Of a DNA stretch of 40,623 nucleotides, positions 2,840 to 21,830 are shown piece after piece. The stretch is from a virus, in IMG/VR virus record IMGVR_UViG_3300031178_000001, one strand, 5' to 3'. Within the stretch, counting starts at the first letter, position 1. Every line of letters starts with the position of its first letter. The translations under genes were made by a program, and so were the position numbers. The notes under the pieces were generated by a model. That model was given only the letters and a program-made list of their open reading frames with translations, was not told where the DNA came from and did not search any database.

Positions 2840-3469
2840 TCACAGTATTGTGACGACTTGCACAGCTCTGCCGATAATTCGTGCCGGGTTGTCCGGAGTG
2901 ACGATTATCGGTTCGTACTCCGGGTTGTCAGGGAGCAGGATCAGCAGATCGCCTTGCCGCTTGACGCGCTTCAGTGTCGCCTCTTCGTCGCCGTTGACTA
3001 GGATGGCCGCAATTGCTCCGTTTTCTACATCTGGTTGTTCGCGGATCAGGACGAGCGAACCGTCCGGGATCGTCGGTTCCATACTCTTGCCCTTAGCGCG
3101 AAGATAAAACAGTTCACCGGCCGGGAGCCGTTCCGGCGATTCATATACATATTCACTTATATTTTGCTCCGCGAGGATCGGTTCTCCGCACGCGATGGTC
3201 CCCAGCACGGGGATCGGTACTGTTCTCGGTCCTGCGGGGGCGAGGTTCGAAGGACGTTCCTCGGTCAACATAGATTTTGGCACATTAAAGAAATCCGCCA
3301 TCTTTTGAATCTTGTCAATTCTCGGATACTTATCGCCGCTCAGCCACTGTGACACCGCCGAATCGCTCACCCCGATGTGTTCGGCGAGTGCGCGCTGGTC
3401 AATTCCTTTACTTTCCAATAACTTTTGAAGGTTTTCAGCCAAAACTTCACGGGCGCTTTTCTTAAGCAC
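2840..3469 (-). CDS. CI/LexA-like repressor (XRE HTH + S24 peptidase), 209 aa
   Basis: N-terminal HTH (QRALAEHIGVSDSAVSQWLSG). C-terminal S24 motifs GKSMEPTI...LKRV. GTG start with a GGAGGGG RBS. Confidence 0.92.
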   Translation of the reverse strand: MLKKSAREVLAENLQKLLESKGIDQRALAEHIGVSDSAVSQWLSGDKYPRIDKIQKMADFFNVPKSMLTEERPSNLAPAGPRTVPIPVLGTIACGEPILAEQNISEYVYESPERLPAGELFYLRAKGKSMEPTIPDGSLVLIREQPDVENGAIAAILVNGDEEATLKRVKRQGDLLILLPDNPEYEPIIVTPDNPARIIGRAVQVVTIL

Positions 3470-6284: not shown

Positions 6285-6694
6285 TGGCGGACAAAGTCAA
6301 GCTGCCGCGAGAAGTGGCGGAGGCGTTGGAGAAGATTTTGAAGGACGAACCTGATCTTGATAAAGATAGACAATTCATTGTGTGGAACTCAGCACATGCA
6401 CCTAACAAATTTGATAGCGGACCATGGGGTGTTCTGTATGATTTCGTAGGTTCGGGGAACATCTTCCTTCTGGCCGACGCCCTCCGCTACGGCTACGAAG
6501 TCGAACTGGAGCCGATCACGGTCACCATCACGCCGGAGATGCAAGAAAAAATCACCCAATATTACGCAAATCTCGACCCCAACACGCAGGAGGACGCCTT
6601 TGACCGGGAATTTGTATTGGGCGAGCGTTCCGGCGTCAGATTCACACTCAAAATGCTCGGCATCACGATCCCCGGCATCCCGTCGGAAGGATGA
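6284..6694 (+). CDS. Hypothetical protein, 136 aa
   Basis: ATG 6284 shares its A with the upstream stop (TGATG). Confidence 0.6.
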   Translation: MADKVKLPREVAEALEKILKDEPDLDKDRQFIVWNSAHAPNKFDSGPWGVLYDFVGSGNIFLLADALRYGYEVELEPITVTITPEMQEKITQYYANLDPNTQEDAFDREFVLGERSGVRFTLKMLGITIPGIPSEG

Positions 6695-6717
6695 CCGTCA
6701 ATTAACCGGTACAAGGG

Positions 6718-7629
6718 GTGGAAGTCTTGAAAATCTGTTATCGGGAGATCAATTTCCGGCCTGACAGTCTGGCGCTGATTGAACAGGTAAACGGCATCAT
6801 CGACGAATACCAGCGCATGGGCTATTCGCTCACGTTGCGACAAGTCTATTACCAGCTGGTCGCCAGAGACATCATCCCGAACAACGAGCGCAGTTATAAA
6901 AATCTCGGCAATTTGATCAATGACGCACGCCTTGCCGGCCTTATCAGCTGGGAAGCGATCGTTGATCGCACGCGGTACATTCGGAAGAACAGCCACTGGG
7001 CTGGTCCCTCTGAGATCGTATGGGCGGCTGCAAATCAGCTCTTTTACGATCGTTGGGCTGACCAGGATTATTATGTCGAGGTTTGGGTTGAGAAAGACGC
7101 GCTTGTCGACGTTGTCGGTAAGACCTGCGAAGAACTGGACGTGCCCTACTTCTCGTGCCGTGGATACGTCAGCCAGTCCGAAATGTGGACCGCTGCTCAG
7201 CGGTTGCGCGACAAGGCCGACGACGGGAAGGAGATCGTCGTCCTCCACCTGGGCGACCACGACCCGAGCGGCATCGACATGAGCCGGGATATCGAGGAGC
7301 GGCTGAATCTCTTCGAAGCATATCCGACTTTCCGGCGGATTGCTCTGAACATGGATCAAATCGAGGAATACAGCCCGCCGCCGAACCCGGCGAAACTGTC
7401 CGACAGCCGCGCAAGGGACTATATCAGCCGACATGGCTACGAAAGTTGGGAGCTCGATGCCCTTCGCCCGGAAGTAATCGATGAGCTCATCCGCGAGCAC
7501 GTCTACGAATTCCGTGATCCGAATCTCCTCGATGAGATCGTGGAGCGCGAAGAGCGCGACAAGGAACTGCTCAAGAATGTGGCGCGGAACTGGAGAGACG
7601 TTGAAACCAAATACCGAGCGGAGGACTGA
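6718..7629 (+). CDS. Top6A/Spo11-like protein (5Y-CAP + Toprim; 'Mini-A' type), 303 aa
   Basis: LTLRQVYYQLV matches the CAP-domain catalytic-Tyr motif. VEVWVEKDAL matches the Toprim Glu. HLGDHDPSGIDM matches Toprim DxDxxG. Confidence 0.6.
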   Translation: MEVLKICYREINFRPDSLALIEQVNGIIDEYQRMGYSLTLRQVYYQLVARDIIPNNERSYKNLGNLINDARLAGLISWEAIVDRTRYIRKNSHWAGPSEIVWAAANQLFYDRWADQDYYVEVWVEKDALVDVVGKTCEELDVPYFSCRGYVSQSEMWTAAQRLRDKADDGKEIVVLHLGDHDPSGIDMSRDIEERLNLFEAYPTFRRIALNMDQIEEYSPPPNPAKLSDSRARDYISRHGYESWELDALRPEVIDELIREHVYEFRDPNLLDEIVEREERDKELLKNVARNWRDVETKYRAED

Positions 7630-18076: not shown

Positions 18077-18330
18077 AGTGCGAAGTGTGTGACGGTCGCG
18101 GAGGATGGTATGACGGTATCGGACCAAATGCGGAGCCGATATCTTGTGAGATTTGCGGCGGTCTGGGTGAGATCACAACATACCTCTGCAAACAATGCGG
18201 CCGCCCGGGGGAGCTGCGGGACAACCAGACGTACTGTGAGCACTGCGGCCCGGGCGTGGAGCTGGTGGCGGCGCCGGATGAGGCGAGCGTGTACGGGATG
18301 GACTGCCGCAGCGGGAGGTGTGAGGGGTGA
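18073..18330 (+). CDS. DnaJ-type zinc-finger (CxxCxGxG repeat) protein, 85 aa
   Basis: CEVCDGRG, CEICGGLG, CKQCGRPG, CEHCGPG. Confidence 0.65.
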   Translation: MKCEVCDGRGGWYDGIGPNAEPISCEICGGLGEITTYLCKQCGRPGELRDNQTYCEHCGPGVELVAAPDEASVYGMDCRSGRCEG

Positions 18331-18509
18331 TTTACAAGCAGCCGAAACCCGGCGACAGATACCGGCCCATTGTCACGGTACTCAAAGTGAAAAAGAGTGT
18401 TCCGACCATAATCCGCGTCTCCGGGCGGGAGTACGTGCTGCGGACGCCGGATCAGTTCAACCAAAGAAGACAGGGGGCGGTGAAGCGTGACCGAACAACA
18501 AGCCATTGA
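18327..18509 (+). CDS. Hypothetical protein, 60 aa
   Basis: GTG start overlaps the upstream stop (GTGA). Confidence 0.45.
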   Translation: MIYKQPKPGDRYRPIVTVLKVKKSVPTIIRVSGREYVLRTPDQFNQRRQGAVKRDRTTSH

Positions 18510-19092
18510 GCTCCTGAGCCAATACCGCCAGAAACAGGCCCGGCTGCAGGTGCTGTCGACGTACAGTGTCGGCGCCGGCATCACGATCAGCCGGCTCAAT
18601 GAGGACGACCACCTGCAGGAGCTGCATCGCCGGCTGCGCGGTCTGCCGAGCTACCTGTACCTCAGCGCGAAAGAGCAGCAGCTTGAGAGCGTGGCTCACG
18701 CGTACCTCACCCGGTACCCGGCCGGCACCCGGGCGCAGCTGGCGGCAGTGCCGCGTGAGGGCGCGGACGAAGAGGACGAGCAGCTGCTGCGGGAGCTGCG
18801 GGCGAAGATTCGGAAGGTGATCGCGGCGCGCGGCTGGGACGTGCGCGATGACATCGACGCGGTGCTGGACAGACTGACCGAGTATCAGGACCTTCGGGCG
18901 GAGATCGAGCGGGTGGACACGGTGCTGGCGGCGCTGGAGAATTACAAGCCGGATCTGGCACGGGTGCTGCGGCTGCGGTACGTGGAAGGTAAACAACCGT
19001 CTGAGGTAGCCGCGGAGTTAAAGATCGCGGAGCGCACATTCCGGTCCTGGCAGAAGAAAGCTGAGCAGGAATTTGCCCGACTCGCAGGGTGA
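18487..19092 (+). CDS. Late-gene regulator with sigma-70 region-4 type HTH (ArpU/RinA-like role), 201 aa
   Basis: C-terminus DLARVLRLRYVEGKQPSEVAAELKIAERTFRSWQKKAEQEF. Located immediately upstream of the packaging module. Confidence 0.6.
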   Translation: MTEQQAIELLSQYRQKQARLQVLSTYSVGAGITISRLNEDDHLQELHRRLRGLPSYLYLSAKEQQLESVAHAYLTRYPAGTRAQLAAVPREGADEEDEQLLRELRAKIRKVIAARGWDVRDDIDAVLDRLTEYQDLRAEIERVDTVLAALENYKPDLARVLRLRYVEGKQPSEVAAELKIAERTFRSWQKKAEQEFARLAG

Positions 19093-19093
19093 T

Positions 19094-19168
19094 GCCGAAA
19101 ATATACCGGAAATGTGCCGGAATTATGCCGAAGAAAGGCCGGACAAGCCGAAATTTGCGTGCTAAAAT
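19094..19168 (+). promoter_or_regulatory. Six helically phased (A/G)CCGRA repeats followed by an extended -10 (candidate late promoter)
   Basis: Repeat starts at 19094, 19105, 19116, 19127, 19138 and 19147 (spacing 11, 11, 11, 11, 9). TGCTAAAAT at 19160-19168. Confidence 0.5.
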
Positions 19169-19505
19169 GGTAGTGTCGAAGTCGTGTATCCAAAGGATGA
19201 CGACGCATCTCGCCGCATCGTCTGCGCACTCTGTCCACGGATGGCGTGCAGGACGATATCCGGAGCGGCGGGAAAGCGGCACAGCGTACCAACCGGGAGG
19301 GAACCGCGAGGCAATTCCCGGACGCGAGTGCCGCAATATAGCTATTATGGTCGCCGTCCGGATGGACGGAATGCCCTGTCGAGCCGAAAGGCTACGTGCC
19401 ACGTAGCTTATGTGGGGCGATATGGGGCGGGAATATGTGGGAACCCATGCCATGTACTAGGGGGCTAGGGCACAGCGCTTGAAGGGGTTAGGGCGCGACC
19501 ATTAA

Positions 19506-19621
19506 GGGATGCGGTGGCGGAATAGGTAGACGCTATGGCGTGAGGTGTGAACGACTCGACCTGAAATCGAGCACCGGCGCGGAGGCACACCATGCAGGGT
19601 GCAAATCCCTGCCCGCATCCC
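19506..19621 (+). ncRNA. Non-canonical tRNA-like element (116 nt)
   Basis: 9-bp acceptor-like stem GGGATGCGG/CCGCATCCC. D-arm GCG-GAATAGGTAGA-CGC. T-arm GCAGGG-TGCAAAT-CCCTGC. A 59-nt branched domain replaces the anticodon arm. No encoded CCA. Confidence 0.45.
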
Positions 19622-19636
19622 GAACACGACAATGTC

Positions 19637-19658
19637 AGAGCCTTGGGCTCTTTTTTTT
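19637..19658 (+). terminator. Strong rho-independent terminator 24 nt before the first late ORF
   Basis: AGAGCC-TTG-GGCTCT followed by a run of 8 T. Confidence 0.8.
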
Positions 19659-19681
19659 ATTTACAAAAAGGAGTGTGAACA

Positions 19682-19972
19682 GTGAATGAATTCATCCTGA
19701 CAAGACACGCCTTCGAACGCTACTGTCAGCGGGTCGAGAGGACTGAGCGCAACGAACTGGTTGAGCTGCTCCGGCAGCACGCAGAAAGACCGACGCATAA
19801 AAAACGCGGTTATATCGAGCTGGCCGGTGTGTGGTGGAGGTATGGCATGCGTGACAACACGATGATCCTTTATACGTGCTATGGCCGGCATCATATCGAC
19901 TTGCCCGCTGCGATTCGGTGGGCGAAGCGAAAGAAAGACCGCATCAACCTGGGAGGGGGTGAAGCACGATGA
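19682..19972 (+). CDS. Hypothetical protein, 96 aa
   Basis: GTG start with an AAAGGAG RBS. N-terminus LTRHAFERYCQRV. Confidence 0.6.
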   Translation: MNEFILTRHAFERYCQRVERTERNELVELLRQHAERPTHKKRGYIELAGVWWRYGMRDNTMILYTCYGRHHIDLPAAIRWAKRKKDRINLGGGEAR

Positions 19973-20379
19973 CGGACGTTCTCGCGGGCGCAAACGTTGA
20001 CAATTACAAGCCGACGGCGAAGGAGAAAAAACTGATTGACGTCTTGTGTGATCCGGCGCACCGATACAAAAACATCACCCAAATTTGTCAAGTGGCCGAA
20101 ATCAGCCGCGAGGCGTATTACAAGATGTTCCGCAAGCCTCAATTTGTCGCCTATTACAACCGCGTGCAATTTGAGGTCGTGAAGCAGAACATTGCGAAGG
20201 TGCTGGCCGCTACAATCGAATTCGCGATTTCTGATCCGAAATGCCATCAGGATCGGAAGATGCTGCTTGAGATGGGGAACATGTACACGGAAAAGGTGAA
20301 GCAGGAAATCACCGGAGAAGGTGGCGGCCCGATTACGGTTGTTTTCAGCGACAAGATGAAGCCGCCGGGTGATGCGTGA
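19969..20379 (+). CDS. terS: Terminase small subunit (putative), 136 aa
   Basis: HTH ITQICQVAEISREAYYKMF. Coupled directly upstream of terL. Confidence 0.65.
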   Translation: MTDVLAGANVDNYKPTAKEKKLIDVLCDPAHRYKNITQICQVAEISREAYYKMFRKPQFVAYYNRVQFEVVKQNIAKVLAATIEFAISDPKCHQDRKMLLEMGNMYTEKVKQEITGEGGGPITVVFSDKMKPPGDA

Positions 20380-21830
20380 TGAAGATCGTCATTCCGTACG
20401 AACCGCAACCGCGGCAACAGCTTTATCACCAGACAACGAACGTTGACGAGCTGCTTTATGGAGGCGCCGCGGGCGGCGGAAAGACCGAAGCGACCATATG
20501 GGACGCGCTTTATTACGGTCTGCAATATCCGCAGTCGCGGCAGATTATCTTTCGCCGGAAGTTCCCGGACCTTGAGCGCTCCATCATCGCGAGGACGTTG
20601 CAAGTTTACCCTCCGGAGCTGGCAAAGTATAACGCATCAAAGCACATCTGGACGCTGGCAAATGGTTCTATTATCGAGCTTGCGGCATGGGACCATGATG
20701 ACGATTACCTCAAATACGCCGGCGCGGAATATGACGTTGTTCGCTGGGAAGAGTTGACCCAATTCAAGGAAAAGTGGTACAAGCTCATGCTTTCCCGCAT
20801 CCGGGGCGCGAAGCCGTACCCGCGTTTCGTTAAGTCGACGACAAACCCGGGCGGCGAGGGGCACGCGTGGGTAAAAAAGCGGTTTATCGACATCGGGCCG
20901 CCGGAAAGGGTGCATGTCGTACAGGAGACGACGGACGACGGCGATCCGATGTATTACCCGGCCGATCATCCGAAAGCCGGGCAACCGATTGTGTCCCGAC
21001 GCATCTTCATCCCGGCGCGCGTCAGCGATAACAAGAAACTGATGGAAGTTGATCCTGATTATGTGGCCCGGTTAATGAGCTTGTCGGACAAAGAGCGCAA
21101 GCAGCTTCTCGAGGGCGACTGGGACACGTTTGCAGGCCAATATTTCGAAGAATGGAGCCGGCCGATTCACGTCGTCGAGCCGTTCGAAATCCCGCGCGAA
21201 TGGCGCAGATACCGGGCGCTGGACGAGGGATATACAGACCCCTTCGTCTGCCTATGGATCGCCGTTGACCGGCAGGGTTTCGCCTATGTATATCGTGAGG
21301 CGGTTCGCAAGAAACTGCTATCCCGCGAACAGGCGCAGCTCGTGAAGCAGCTCACCGGCGATGAAGTCATTGATTATTCCGTCGGGGATACGTCGTTCTG
21401 GAACAAGTCGAAGGTCGATACGAACGAATCGCCGGCCGAAATCTTCGCCAAAGAGGGCGTGCCGCTGATCCAGGCGAACAAGGAGCGCGTCAACGGCTGG
21501 AAACGTCTGCGCGACTGGCTCAAACCGATCGAAGTGGTCGACCCGGTGACGGGCAAAACCTACACGACCGCAAAGCTGCGGGTGTTCTCGACGTGCATCC
21601 AGACCATCGAGGCGATTCCGGCCATGATCCACGACGATCACAACCCCGAAGACGTGGCAGAGCACGAACTTGATCACGTCCCGGACGCGCTGCGCTATTG
21701 GGCGATGAGCCGGCCGTCGCCGGCGAAGCCTGAACCGCCGAAGCATCCGACGGAACGCGAAATGGTGCAGCGGCACATCGACAAGCTGGACCGCATGGCG
21801 AAAAGGCGAAAGGTGGAATATCTCGGATGA
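20379..21830 (+). CDS. terL: Terminase large subunit, about 483 aa
   Basis: Walker A YGGAAGGGKTEA. Walker B-like VVRWEELTQF. C-terminal nuclease-type acidic motifs. GTG 20376 is the alternative start. Confidence 0.9.
   Translation: MKIVIPYEPQPRQQLYHQTTNVDELLYGGAAGGGKTEATIWDALYYGLQYPQSRQIIFRRKFPDLERSIIARTLQVYPPELAKYNASKHIWTLANGSIIELAAWDHDDDYLKYAGAEYDVVRWEELTQFKEKWYKLMLSRIRGAKPYPRFVKSTTNPGGEGHAWVKKRFIDIGPPERVHVVQETTDDGDPMYYPADHPKAGQPIVSRRIFIPARVSDNKKLMEVDPDYVARLMSLSDKERKQLLEGDWDTFAGQYFEEWSRPIHVVEPFEIPREWRRYRALDEGYTDPFVCLWIAVDRQGFAYVYREAVRKKLLSREQAQLVKQLTGDEVIDYSVGDTSFWNKSKVDTNESPAEIFAKEGVPLIQANKERVNGWKRLRDWLKPIEVVDPVTGKTYTTAKLRVFSTCIQTIEAIPAMIHDDHNPEDVAEHELDHVPDALRYWAMSRPSPAKPEPPKHPTEREMVQRHIDKLDRMAKRRKVEYLG

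Follow-up and report, generated by a model that had tools for sequence, protein, structure and literature searches.

In phage lambda, the late genes are controlled at the pR'-6S RNA-tR' segment by Q antitermination, and the terminated 6S RNA is a discrete by-product. Gram-positive phages use late activators of the Ltr superfamily, among them LtrA (Sigma70_r4) and LtrB (DUF1492), and direct repeats just past the ltr stop codon were shown experimentally to be the Ltr binding sites (PMC3753634). The Alt repeats of phage TP901-1 lie at -76 to -32 (PMC3152322). For phi11 and 80alpha, a terminator was assumed before the promoter, the start was mapped more than 155 bp away from the binding site, and the gap that separates the RinA binding site from the mapped 5' end of the RNA is acknowledged as a puzzle (PMC3152322). 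In this study, we analyzed the block at 19093-19681 of a 40,623-nt stretch of virus DNA, the IMG/VR record IMGVR_UViG_3300031178_000001 (the whole stretch is called the window, and positions without a locus number refer to it; related loci carry L numbers). The block sits between the gene of a 201-aa regulator (18487-19092) and the first late open reading frame (ORF), which starts with GTG at 19682. We believe that it is probably the control region and untranslated leader RNA of the late (packaging/morphogenesis) operon of a Paenibacillus-type phage. We describe the anatomy, conservation, and mosaicism of this block and the covariation of the tRNA-like family to which one of its parts belongs. 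The features are as follows.

18487-19092, plus strand: gene of the late-gene activator, Ltr superfamily (sigma-70 region 4/DUF1492 type), 201 aa; from Pfam, PHROG, homologues, and an AlphaFold (AF2) model.
19093-19155, plus strand: five to six phased direct repeats (T)GCCGRAA, presumed activator binding sites; from spacing and relatives.
19140-19168, plus strand: late promoter with a weak -35 CGGACA, a 17-nt spacer, and TAAAAT with an upstream TG, the extended -10 being TGCTAAAAT at 19160-19168; from a scan and conservation.
19173-19206, plus strand: 5' hairpin A of the leader; from the minimum free energy (MFE) fold, kept in L107, L086, L220, L295, L299, and L312.
19208-19273, plus strand: module B, a long hairpin with the invariant apical part CACUCUGUCCACGGAUGGCGUG; z = -3.8 jointly with hairpin A.
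19276-19505, plus strand: lineage-specific insert of 230 nt; missing in L107, folds.
19370-19431, plus strand: sub-threshold match to DUF3800-VIII RNA (RF03075); 31.5 bits (gathering score 40.2), with E = 0.0015 when 1 kb was searched.
19506-19621, plus strand: tRNA-Leu-derived tRNA-like element; from the covarying family and the MFE fold.
19620-19636, plus strand: conserved tail CCGAACACGACAAUGUC, which joins the tRNA-like element to the terminator; kept in L107 and L086.
19637-19658, plus strand: intrinsic terminator AGAGCC-TTG-GGCTCT (19637-19651, 6-bp stem, 3-nt loop) with T8 at 19651-19658; from a scan.
19682-21830, plus strand: first late genes, namely an unknown 96-aa ORF (19682-19972), a terS-like gene (19969-20379), and terL (20376-21830); from ORFs, Pfam, and PHROG.

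The regulatory frame is the known Ltr/Alt type of late promoter with the logic of lambda pR'-6S-tR', in a new variant. As in the Ltr superfamily (RinA, ArpU, LtrA, LtrB, LtrC) and TP901-1 Alt, a regulator with a sigma region 4-like domain, of the RinA/ArpU/Sigma70_r4/DUF1492 families, is encoded just upstream of the packaging genes, and direct repeats specific to the regulator follow its stop codon. Unlike in these systems, the promoter of the window lies immediately next to the repeats, and a long structured leader and a terminator come after it; activation is predicted here. With lambda, the window shares the order of regulator gene, promoter, short non-coding transcript, terminator, and late genes, with no room for a second promoter. 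It differs from lambda in that the regulator has no Q fold, the promoter is probably activator-dependent and not constitutive, the leader carries a large cargo, and antitermination is a proposal.

The regulator was identified from several kinds of comparison. The Pfam profiles Sigma70_ECF and r4 match only its C-terminal third. It also matches PHROG 248, 36, and 79, all annotated as transcription regulators; the 'Q-like' match to PHROG 79 is weak and confined to the helix-turn-helix (HTH). Its homologues in Paenibacillus and Cohnella prophages carry the names sigma-24 or DUF1492, and the nearest named phages by this protein are Paenibacillus phages (51-57% identity). In the AF2 model (pLDDT 76), about 60 C-terminal residues match the -35-binding sigma region 4; a Foldseek search with this model returned sigma region 4 matches only and no Q-like fold. 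A sequence search of PDB with the regulator gave no match. The sigma region 4 profiles, PHROGs, homologue names, and AF2 model together indicate that the regulator falls within the Ltr superfamily.

The short repeats begin right after the regulator stop codon. CCGRA starts at 19095, 19106, 19117, 19128, 19139, and 19148, with spacings of 11, 11, 11, 11, and 9 nt, and these repeats, at about -80 to -23, are the presumed binding sites of the activator, in agreement with the demonstrated Ltr sites and with the Alt repeats of TP901-1. The repeat sequence at this place differs in most of the 20 homologous loci examined (GAGAAMA, GCGAAMA, GGCGGAA, GAGACAA, GATCGGT, GGGAAAA, ATGCGAS, and TGGCAC), and it changes together with the regulator. 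In L130 and L131, the regulator is 81% identical and the repeats are GAGAAMA, yet the leader is 99.6% identical to that of the window. This indicates that the regulator and repeats move as one module. Comparison of L130/L131 3001-3700 with window 18487-19180 places the exchange junction between repeats 5 and 6, and the sixth 'repeat' (19148) may thus be part of the core promoter. The motif cgTGnTAnnATGrTAnTGTCGrAAG follows the repeats and is kept downstream of homologous regulator genes in at least 16 relatives. Simple promoter and terminator scans alone were not above chance, and the support comes from conservation in relatives. Transcription is predicted to start near 19175.

A sequence-only reading of this DNA had noted the promoter-like start, and the extended -10 site was indeed kept in relatives. 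The 6-bp hairpin with eight Ts that it reported was found at 19637-19658. That reading had called the terminator strong and placed it directly before terS; a terminator is present there, but its hairpin, at -7.4 kcal/mol, is weak and the U8 tract gives the terminator its strength; the 96-aa ORF comes first, with the terS-like gene second. The ribosome-binding site (RBS) AAAGGAG (19667-19673) lies directly past the terminator, with only 23 nt between the U tract and the GTG. As the sequence-only reading had held, another promoter does not fit here, and the late genes would therefore have to be reached by read-through. The absence of a credible ORF was also borne out: no ORF of 19093-19681 on either strand matched Pfam, and the indels of the block relative to close relatives are large and non-triplet (232 nt are missing from L107), which together indicate that the block is non-coding.

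The layout of a Q-type cassette, with a terminator separating the late promoter from the late genes and no other promoter in between, is present here, and the order of promoter and terminator recurs in at least eight relatives (L128, L132, L134, L136, L144, L201, L202, and L203). The intrinsic terminator between the Ltr-type promoter and the next gene lies 50-51 nt from the -10 in L128/L132, 94 nt in L134, 51 nt in L136, 63 nt in L144, 267 nt in L129 (on the same contig as L107), and 585 nt in L133. By inspection, a promoter-proximal terminator was also found in L142, L201, L202, and L203; in L202, the RBS follows the terminator at 8 nt, an arrangement as in the window. At the homologous position, L107 and L086 have a hairpin of -16.6 kcal/mol with U5. 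In L128 and L132, the same promoter is followed by a leader of merely 50 nt with a terminator and no RNA cargo. Since relatives with the same regulator carry no RNA cargo, the cargo is not required for read-through.

The leader, about 485 nt long, is a mosaic whose structured modules evolve independently of one another. The whole block folded with z = -3.87 on the plus strand (0/100 shuffles folded as well) and z = -3.74 on the minus strand; because the minus strand is nearly as stable, stability alone does not give the strand. The z values of the sub-blocks were -3.8 (19172-19275), -5.1 (19276-19340), -2.5 (19350-19435), +1.1 (19436-19505), and -2.3 (19506-19621). The sequence-only reading had described a highly structured RNA of about 480 nt, which holds for the block as a whole but not for 19436-19505, which is unstructured. 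The GNRA-capped helices that it mentioned are represented by two loops (GCGA and GAAA), and the tRNA-like element, which it had seen as a neighbor, lies inside the block. Its proposal of one large ornate RNA had to be given up, as the middle 230 nt are missing in close relatives and the tRNA-like part is an independent module. Its suggested covariation check gave strong support for the tRNA-like element, but only one compensatory pair for module B.

Module B is near-invariant in sequence across otherwise diverged leaders. Its single compensatory pair (RNAalifold) means that its structure is supported by energy and U-G/G-U pairs and not by covariation. Scans of viral and metagenome sequences for homologues of module B gave near-identical copies only, and most metagenome 16-mer matches were due to chance. 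In L121-L125, the invariant core of module B occurs in leaders of about 600-800 nt together with other 5' hairpins, small hairpins, and extra domains. L107 aligns to window 18342-19274 and 19507-19646, without 19275-19506, and L086 has 45 nt at that place. The 230-nt insert was present only in L126, L127, L130, and L131 (99.6% identity), with no homologues beyond near-identical contigs. It is composed of a hairpin with the GCGA loop (19276-19334), a hairpin at 19354-19369, the DUF3800-VIII-like hairpin, and an unstructured G-rich tail (19436-19505). The DUF3800-VIII-like match stays below the family score threshold and has five non-canonical pairs in the outer stem, and no DUF3800 protein was found among the seven neighbor proteins scanned. 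The sole canonical G-quadruplex motif of the window on either strand (four runs of at least three G, loops of at most 7 nt) lies at 19414-19441 on the plus strand and overlaps the 3' side of this hairpin; a looser cluster of G runs follows at 19459-19492. By eye, the conserved tail at 19620-19636 appears partly complementary to the 5' end of the leader.

The tRNA-like element has an acceptor stem at 19508-19514/19613-19619, a D arm at 19517-19533, a 58-nt insert at 19534-19591 where the anticodon and variable arms would be, U48 at 19593, and a T arm at 19594-19612 with a 6-bp stem and the loop UGCAAAU. The MFE fold reproduces these arms. From 5' to 3', the layout of the family is a 7-bp acceptor (NNN-GCGG), UG, the tRNA-Leu D arm, an insert of 26-174 nt, A-U48, a 6-bp T stem, and the 3' acceptor. 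Pairing of the acceptor extends over 7-8 bp and then falls to the background level, U48 is invariant, and the T loop reads UGCAAAU in 98 of the 124 members. The D arm and T loop are extremely conserved, and the insert is hypervariable. With bacterial tRNA-Leu, the element shares the acceptor-proximal GCGG, U8, and the whole D arm GCGGAAUAGGUAGACGC, which are identical in L154, L158, and L184, as well as the 7-bp acceptor, U48, and a T arm with C56 and A58; the U8/A14/G18/G19/U48 set of tRNAs is present. It differs from tRNA-Leu in the 6-bp T stem, where tRNAs have a 5-bp stem with a T-Psi-C loop, in the G at position 55 of its own T loop, and in the absence of CCA. The anticodon stem-loop is swapped for the insert across the family. 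An encoded CCA was found in 0/111 elements, and the discriminator base (position 73) is not conserved and follows base composition. ARAGORN made no tRNA or tmRNA call on the element, and the Rfam tRNA model RF00005 had no match in the window. The copy in phage SPP1 scored 21.6 bits with the Rfam tRNA model (gathering score 29) and was aligned only by skipping 50 nt at the anticodon arm. The conserved acceptor, T arm, and elbow, the freely varying anticodon region, and the lack of CCA suggest a module that is recognized through its L-shape.

For the covariation test, 93 distinct tRNA-like sequences were compared with 500 shuffles. Pairing was found in 97.9% of cells versus 85% in the shuffles, and double changes in 217 cells versus 60; 0/500 shuffles reached the observed values. 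When the register was slid, pairing fell to 30-55%. The search seed fixed the D stem and GCGG, so the covariation evidence rests on seven variable pairs. The 3' half was located via at least 4/5 T-stem pairs, two of which were fixed as GG/CC, and rows were retained only if CCGC came after the T stem; the four variable T-stem pairs were thus partly selected for pairing, and the three outer acceptor pairs were not. An alignment of the inserts of four related elements was not reliable, and a search for a motif common to the flanks of the elements found none. Hairpin C (GGGAUCGGGGAUAGCCC) accompanies the element in a subset only, SPP1 included. Some members are elaborated further: a complete tRNA is nested in the insert of L019 (2666-2830), some inserts hold a second T-arm, an extra insert (GGUGAC...AAAUCC) lies inside the T loop in L152, L176, and L030, and two tandem copies occur in L031, L101, and L198.

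The family is present at more than 120 phage loci. Its 5' 23-mer GCGGTGGCGGAATAGGTAGACGC matched at least 119 IMG/VR contigs and 55 species genomes; the latter comprised three genuine tRNA-Leu genes (L154, L158, and L184), and the rest were the tRNA-like element. The hosts of the species-genome matches are mostly Bacillota, with few other phyla. BLAST with a 31-nt query containing the 23-mer found 150 phage records, some of them genuine tRNA-Leu genes; the unannotated matches include SPP1, phi3T, Listeria phage B025, and Leuconostoc, Lactobacillus, Enterococcus, and Geobacillus phages. When the whole block was used against phage records, only the 5' half of the tRNA-like element matched. About 80% of the elements are co-oriented with the flanking ORFs. 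In gene-context counts that rest on crude ORF calling, the nearest upstream gene most often belonged to the regulator family of the window (PHROG 36 in 13/106 and PHROG 248 in 6/106, counts that may overlap), and the commonest functionally annotated downstream neighbors were HNH endonuclease or terS. In Geobacillus phage PK3.5, RinA is followed by a gap holding the element. In many phages, the element is far from the terminase genes.

Known tRNA mimics include the bacterial Y RNA YrlA, the tRNA-like domain of tmRNA, the tRNA-like structures (TLS) of plant viruses, mascRNA, and engineered tRNA scaffolds. The element shares with them an L-shaped elbow (D-loop/T-loop) without decoding, and its insert occupies the anticodon-arm site as in engineered tRNA scaffolds. 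It differs from them in that it matches no Rfam family, does not lie at the 3' end of a genome, and showed no Ro60 gene context. Its topology is opposite to that of YrlA, since its ends are at the acceptor stem and those of YrlA at the anticodon stem (PMC4201824). A description of an anticodon-less, tRNA-Leu-like phage RNA was found neither in Rfam 15 nor in the open-access full-text literature, outside which an earlier description is possible. The family appears to be a new one among tRNA mimics.

Other RNAs occupy the leader in relatives. DUF3800-VII RNAs were found at full score in the leaders of L123 and L133. The DUF3800, skipping-rope, and drum motifs are orphan structured motifs of phage-like regions, often with 3' terminators (Weinberg et al. 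2017, PMC5737381). The likeness of our locus to them lies in these DUF3800-VII leaders and in the VIII-like hairpin of the window; the difference is that the window match is below threshold. Real tRNAs lie at the leader position in L144 (3737-3821), L137 (3708-3789), and L203 (about 3230-3330). They stand behind Ltr-type promoters, score low with the tRNA model (40-47 bits), and seem to hold extra anticodon- or variable-region sequence; they may represent intermediate forms that link true tRNAs to the tRNA-like family. EAR, the eps-associated RNA of Bacillales (epsC, RF01735, 68.9 bits), was found at L153 3349-3462, in a prophage of Cohnella sp. AR92, and at L077 755-868. The order in L153 is an Ltr-like gene, four 11-nt repeats, EAR with its terminator, about 420 nt of further structure, a tRNA-like element, HNH, terS, and terL. 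In both loci, EAR comes directly after an Ltr-type late promoter and so occupies the position of the 5' domain of the window, which is unrelated to it in sequence. Irnov and Winkler are said to have described EAR in 2010 as a processive antitermination RNA. To our knowledge, it is known from eps and capsule operons and not from phage late operons. Its presence at the syntenic junction of L153 means that read-through control at this place has a precedent.

We infer the mechanism of read-through and the function of the cargo as follows. The Ltr-type activator, encoded immediately upstream, would bind the phased CCGRA repeats and switch on the extended -10 promoter. Most transcripts would stop at 19658 as a discrete, roughly 485-nt non-coding RNA placed like the lambda 6S RNA, and the late genes would be expressed only by polymerases that read through the terminator. 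Read-through could either be conferred by a protein at the promoter (the activator itself, with Q-like logic) or be simple leakage. The interval between promoter and terminator may be a slot for phage RNA genes, such as tRNAs, tRNA-like elements, and DUF3800-type motifs. The tRNA-like element might be a stable scaffold, processable by RNase P and RNase Z, that punctuates the transcript or displays the variable insert. Its L-shape might be recognized by RNase P, RNase Z, the CCA-adding enzyme, or some other binder of the elbow. A joint reading of these steps, which we offer tentatively and consider unlikely in full, is that Ltr activators are Q-like antiterminators loaded via the phased repeats, and that the terminated leader is a general RNA-gene slot whose commonest tenant is the tRNA-Leu-derived scaffold. 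In this joint reading, the scaffold would act in trans on an elbow-recognizing host or defence factor, or would punctuate late transcripts via RNase P/RNase Z.

Several points weigh against our reading of the block as the control region and leader of the late operon. The triphosphate 5' end mapped in phi11 and 80alpha lies 23-24 nt upstream of terS and well away from the RinA site (PMC3152322), which shows that Ltr systems can be organized differently. The activator model contains only the sigma region 4 domain and nothing Q-like. We infer both the transcription start and the termination efficiency, and module B and the 230-nt insert are without covariation support. The terminator hairpin is weak, and plain leakage may suffice without dedicated antitermination. 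L128, L132, and L086 hold a possible second promoter (TGAGATAAT) further downstream. Finally, only about 12-18% of the tRNA-like elements lie behind an Ltr-type gene, so the element is not specific to late leaders.

The sequence-only reading had opposed antitermination to an independent non-coding RNA; the two are not mutually exclusive. In the second case, the block would chiefly consist of one or more abundant trans-acting RNA genes on the late promoter, with a leaky terminator and no antitermination, for example as a decoy for tRNA-elbow binders. We regard this as rather unlikely. It agrees with the weak hairpin and U8 tract, with the many contexts of the tRNA-like family unrelated to terS, and with the conserved D-arm and T-loop beside a hypervariable insert, which fits a conserved host factor; DUF3800-type motifs have likewise been described with 3' terminators and an unknown trans function (PMC5737381). 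However, a strong terminator stands at the same place in L107/L086, with no promoter after it in L107, and the promoter-terminator pair is kept without cargo in L128, L132, and L202. This explanation overlaps with the late-operon reading rather than opposing it. It is improbable that hairpin A and module B (19173-19273) form a put- or EAR-type antitermination RNA that acts in cis and lets RNA polymerase resist the downstream terminator. The two-hairpin domain does lie directly past the start site and is near-invariant across diverged leaders, and a bona fide EAR sits at the same position in L153 and L077. But L128 and L132, with regulators 94% and 81% identical and the same promoter, lack the domain and have the terminator, L202 also lacks it, no EAR match was found at 18900-19900 even at E <= 10, and the domain has no covariation support.

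The resemblance to ROOL or GOLLD that the sequence-only reading proposed drew on the size of about 0.5 kb, the GNRA loops, and the nearby tRNA-like element; the prophage location also fits it. ROOL (RF03087) and GOLLD (RF01998) do share with the block the prophage setting and a nearby tRNA-type sequence, a feature that is not specific. They have one conserved fold of about 580-800 nt, whereas the block is modular at about 485 nt, and 230 nt are dispensable in close relatives. No Rfam family matched anywhere in the window at the gathering score, and at E <= 10 the region 18900-19900 gave no ROOL, GOLLD, T-box, tmRNA, Y RNA, or EAR. Membership in the ROOL or GOLLD class is thus refuted at the covariance-model level, and we give it practically no chance. 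It is also very improbable that the block is made of DNA-level elements (cos/pac or terminase sites upstream of terS) or contains a true intron-bearing tRNA gene. The location just upstream of the packaging genes and the exact 23-mer in the tRNA-Leu genes of some bacteria (L154, L158, and L184) would fit such explanations. Against DNA-level sites, compensatory changes in the acceptor and T stems over the 93 sequences, with G-U tolerated, point to selection at the RNA level, and many phages carry the element far from their terminase genes. Against an intron-bearing tRNA, there is no anticodon stem-loop, CCA, or conserved discriminator base, the inserts of 26-174 nt lack intron features, and ARAGORN made no call.

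The late-gene switch of Gram-positive temperate phages is partly understood, and the promoter-terminator cassette behind Ltr-type genes offers a concrete read-through model for it. The tRNA-Leu-derived element is a large covarying RNA family that is unannotated in the model phages SPP1 and phi3T, which makes its function readily testable. Late-operon leaders also provide a genomic setting for the DUF3800-type orphan motifs, and EAR is extended to a prophage late operon.

In Bacillus phage SPP1, the non-coding gap between genes 9 and 11 (L200 1440-1680; NC_004166 about 6590-6830) holds three elements: the hairpin GGGUUCGGGGAUAGCCCGGAC, the tRNA-like element (L200 1497-1606), and a T-arm-like hairpin. 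The 2018 re-annotation of SPP1 lists the T-arm-like hairpin as a weak terminator and does not mention the RNA element. A further conserved hairpin, ACCGCCGGRUGCUUYCCGARCGGU, was seen just upstream of HNH or terS in L128, L132, L086, L153, and L146. It lies past the leader terminator or the tRNA-like element, and in L128/L132 it is followed by the possible extended -10 TGAGATAAT; conceivable roles are those of a promoter element, a packaging site, or an RNA. The 96-aa ORF at 19682-19972 had no Pfam or PHROG match, and its pattern HA-E-Y ... WW ... TCYG ... P-A-WA is common to several related phages (also L132 and L134). On the other side of the block, the small ORF before the regulator (18327-18509) has the C-terminal motif PT-I-V-G-EYVLR-PD, and the same motif ends the L153 protein (2495-2899) with a LexA-type DNA-binding domain. 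This common motif indicates that the gene order upstream of the regulator is also conserved.

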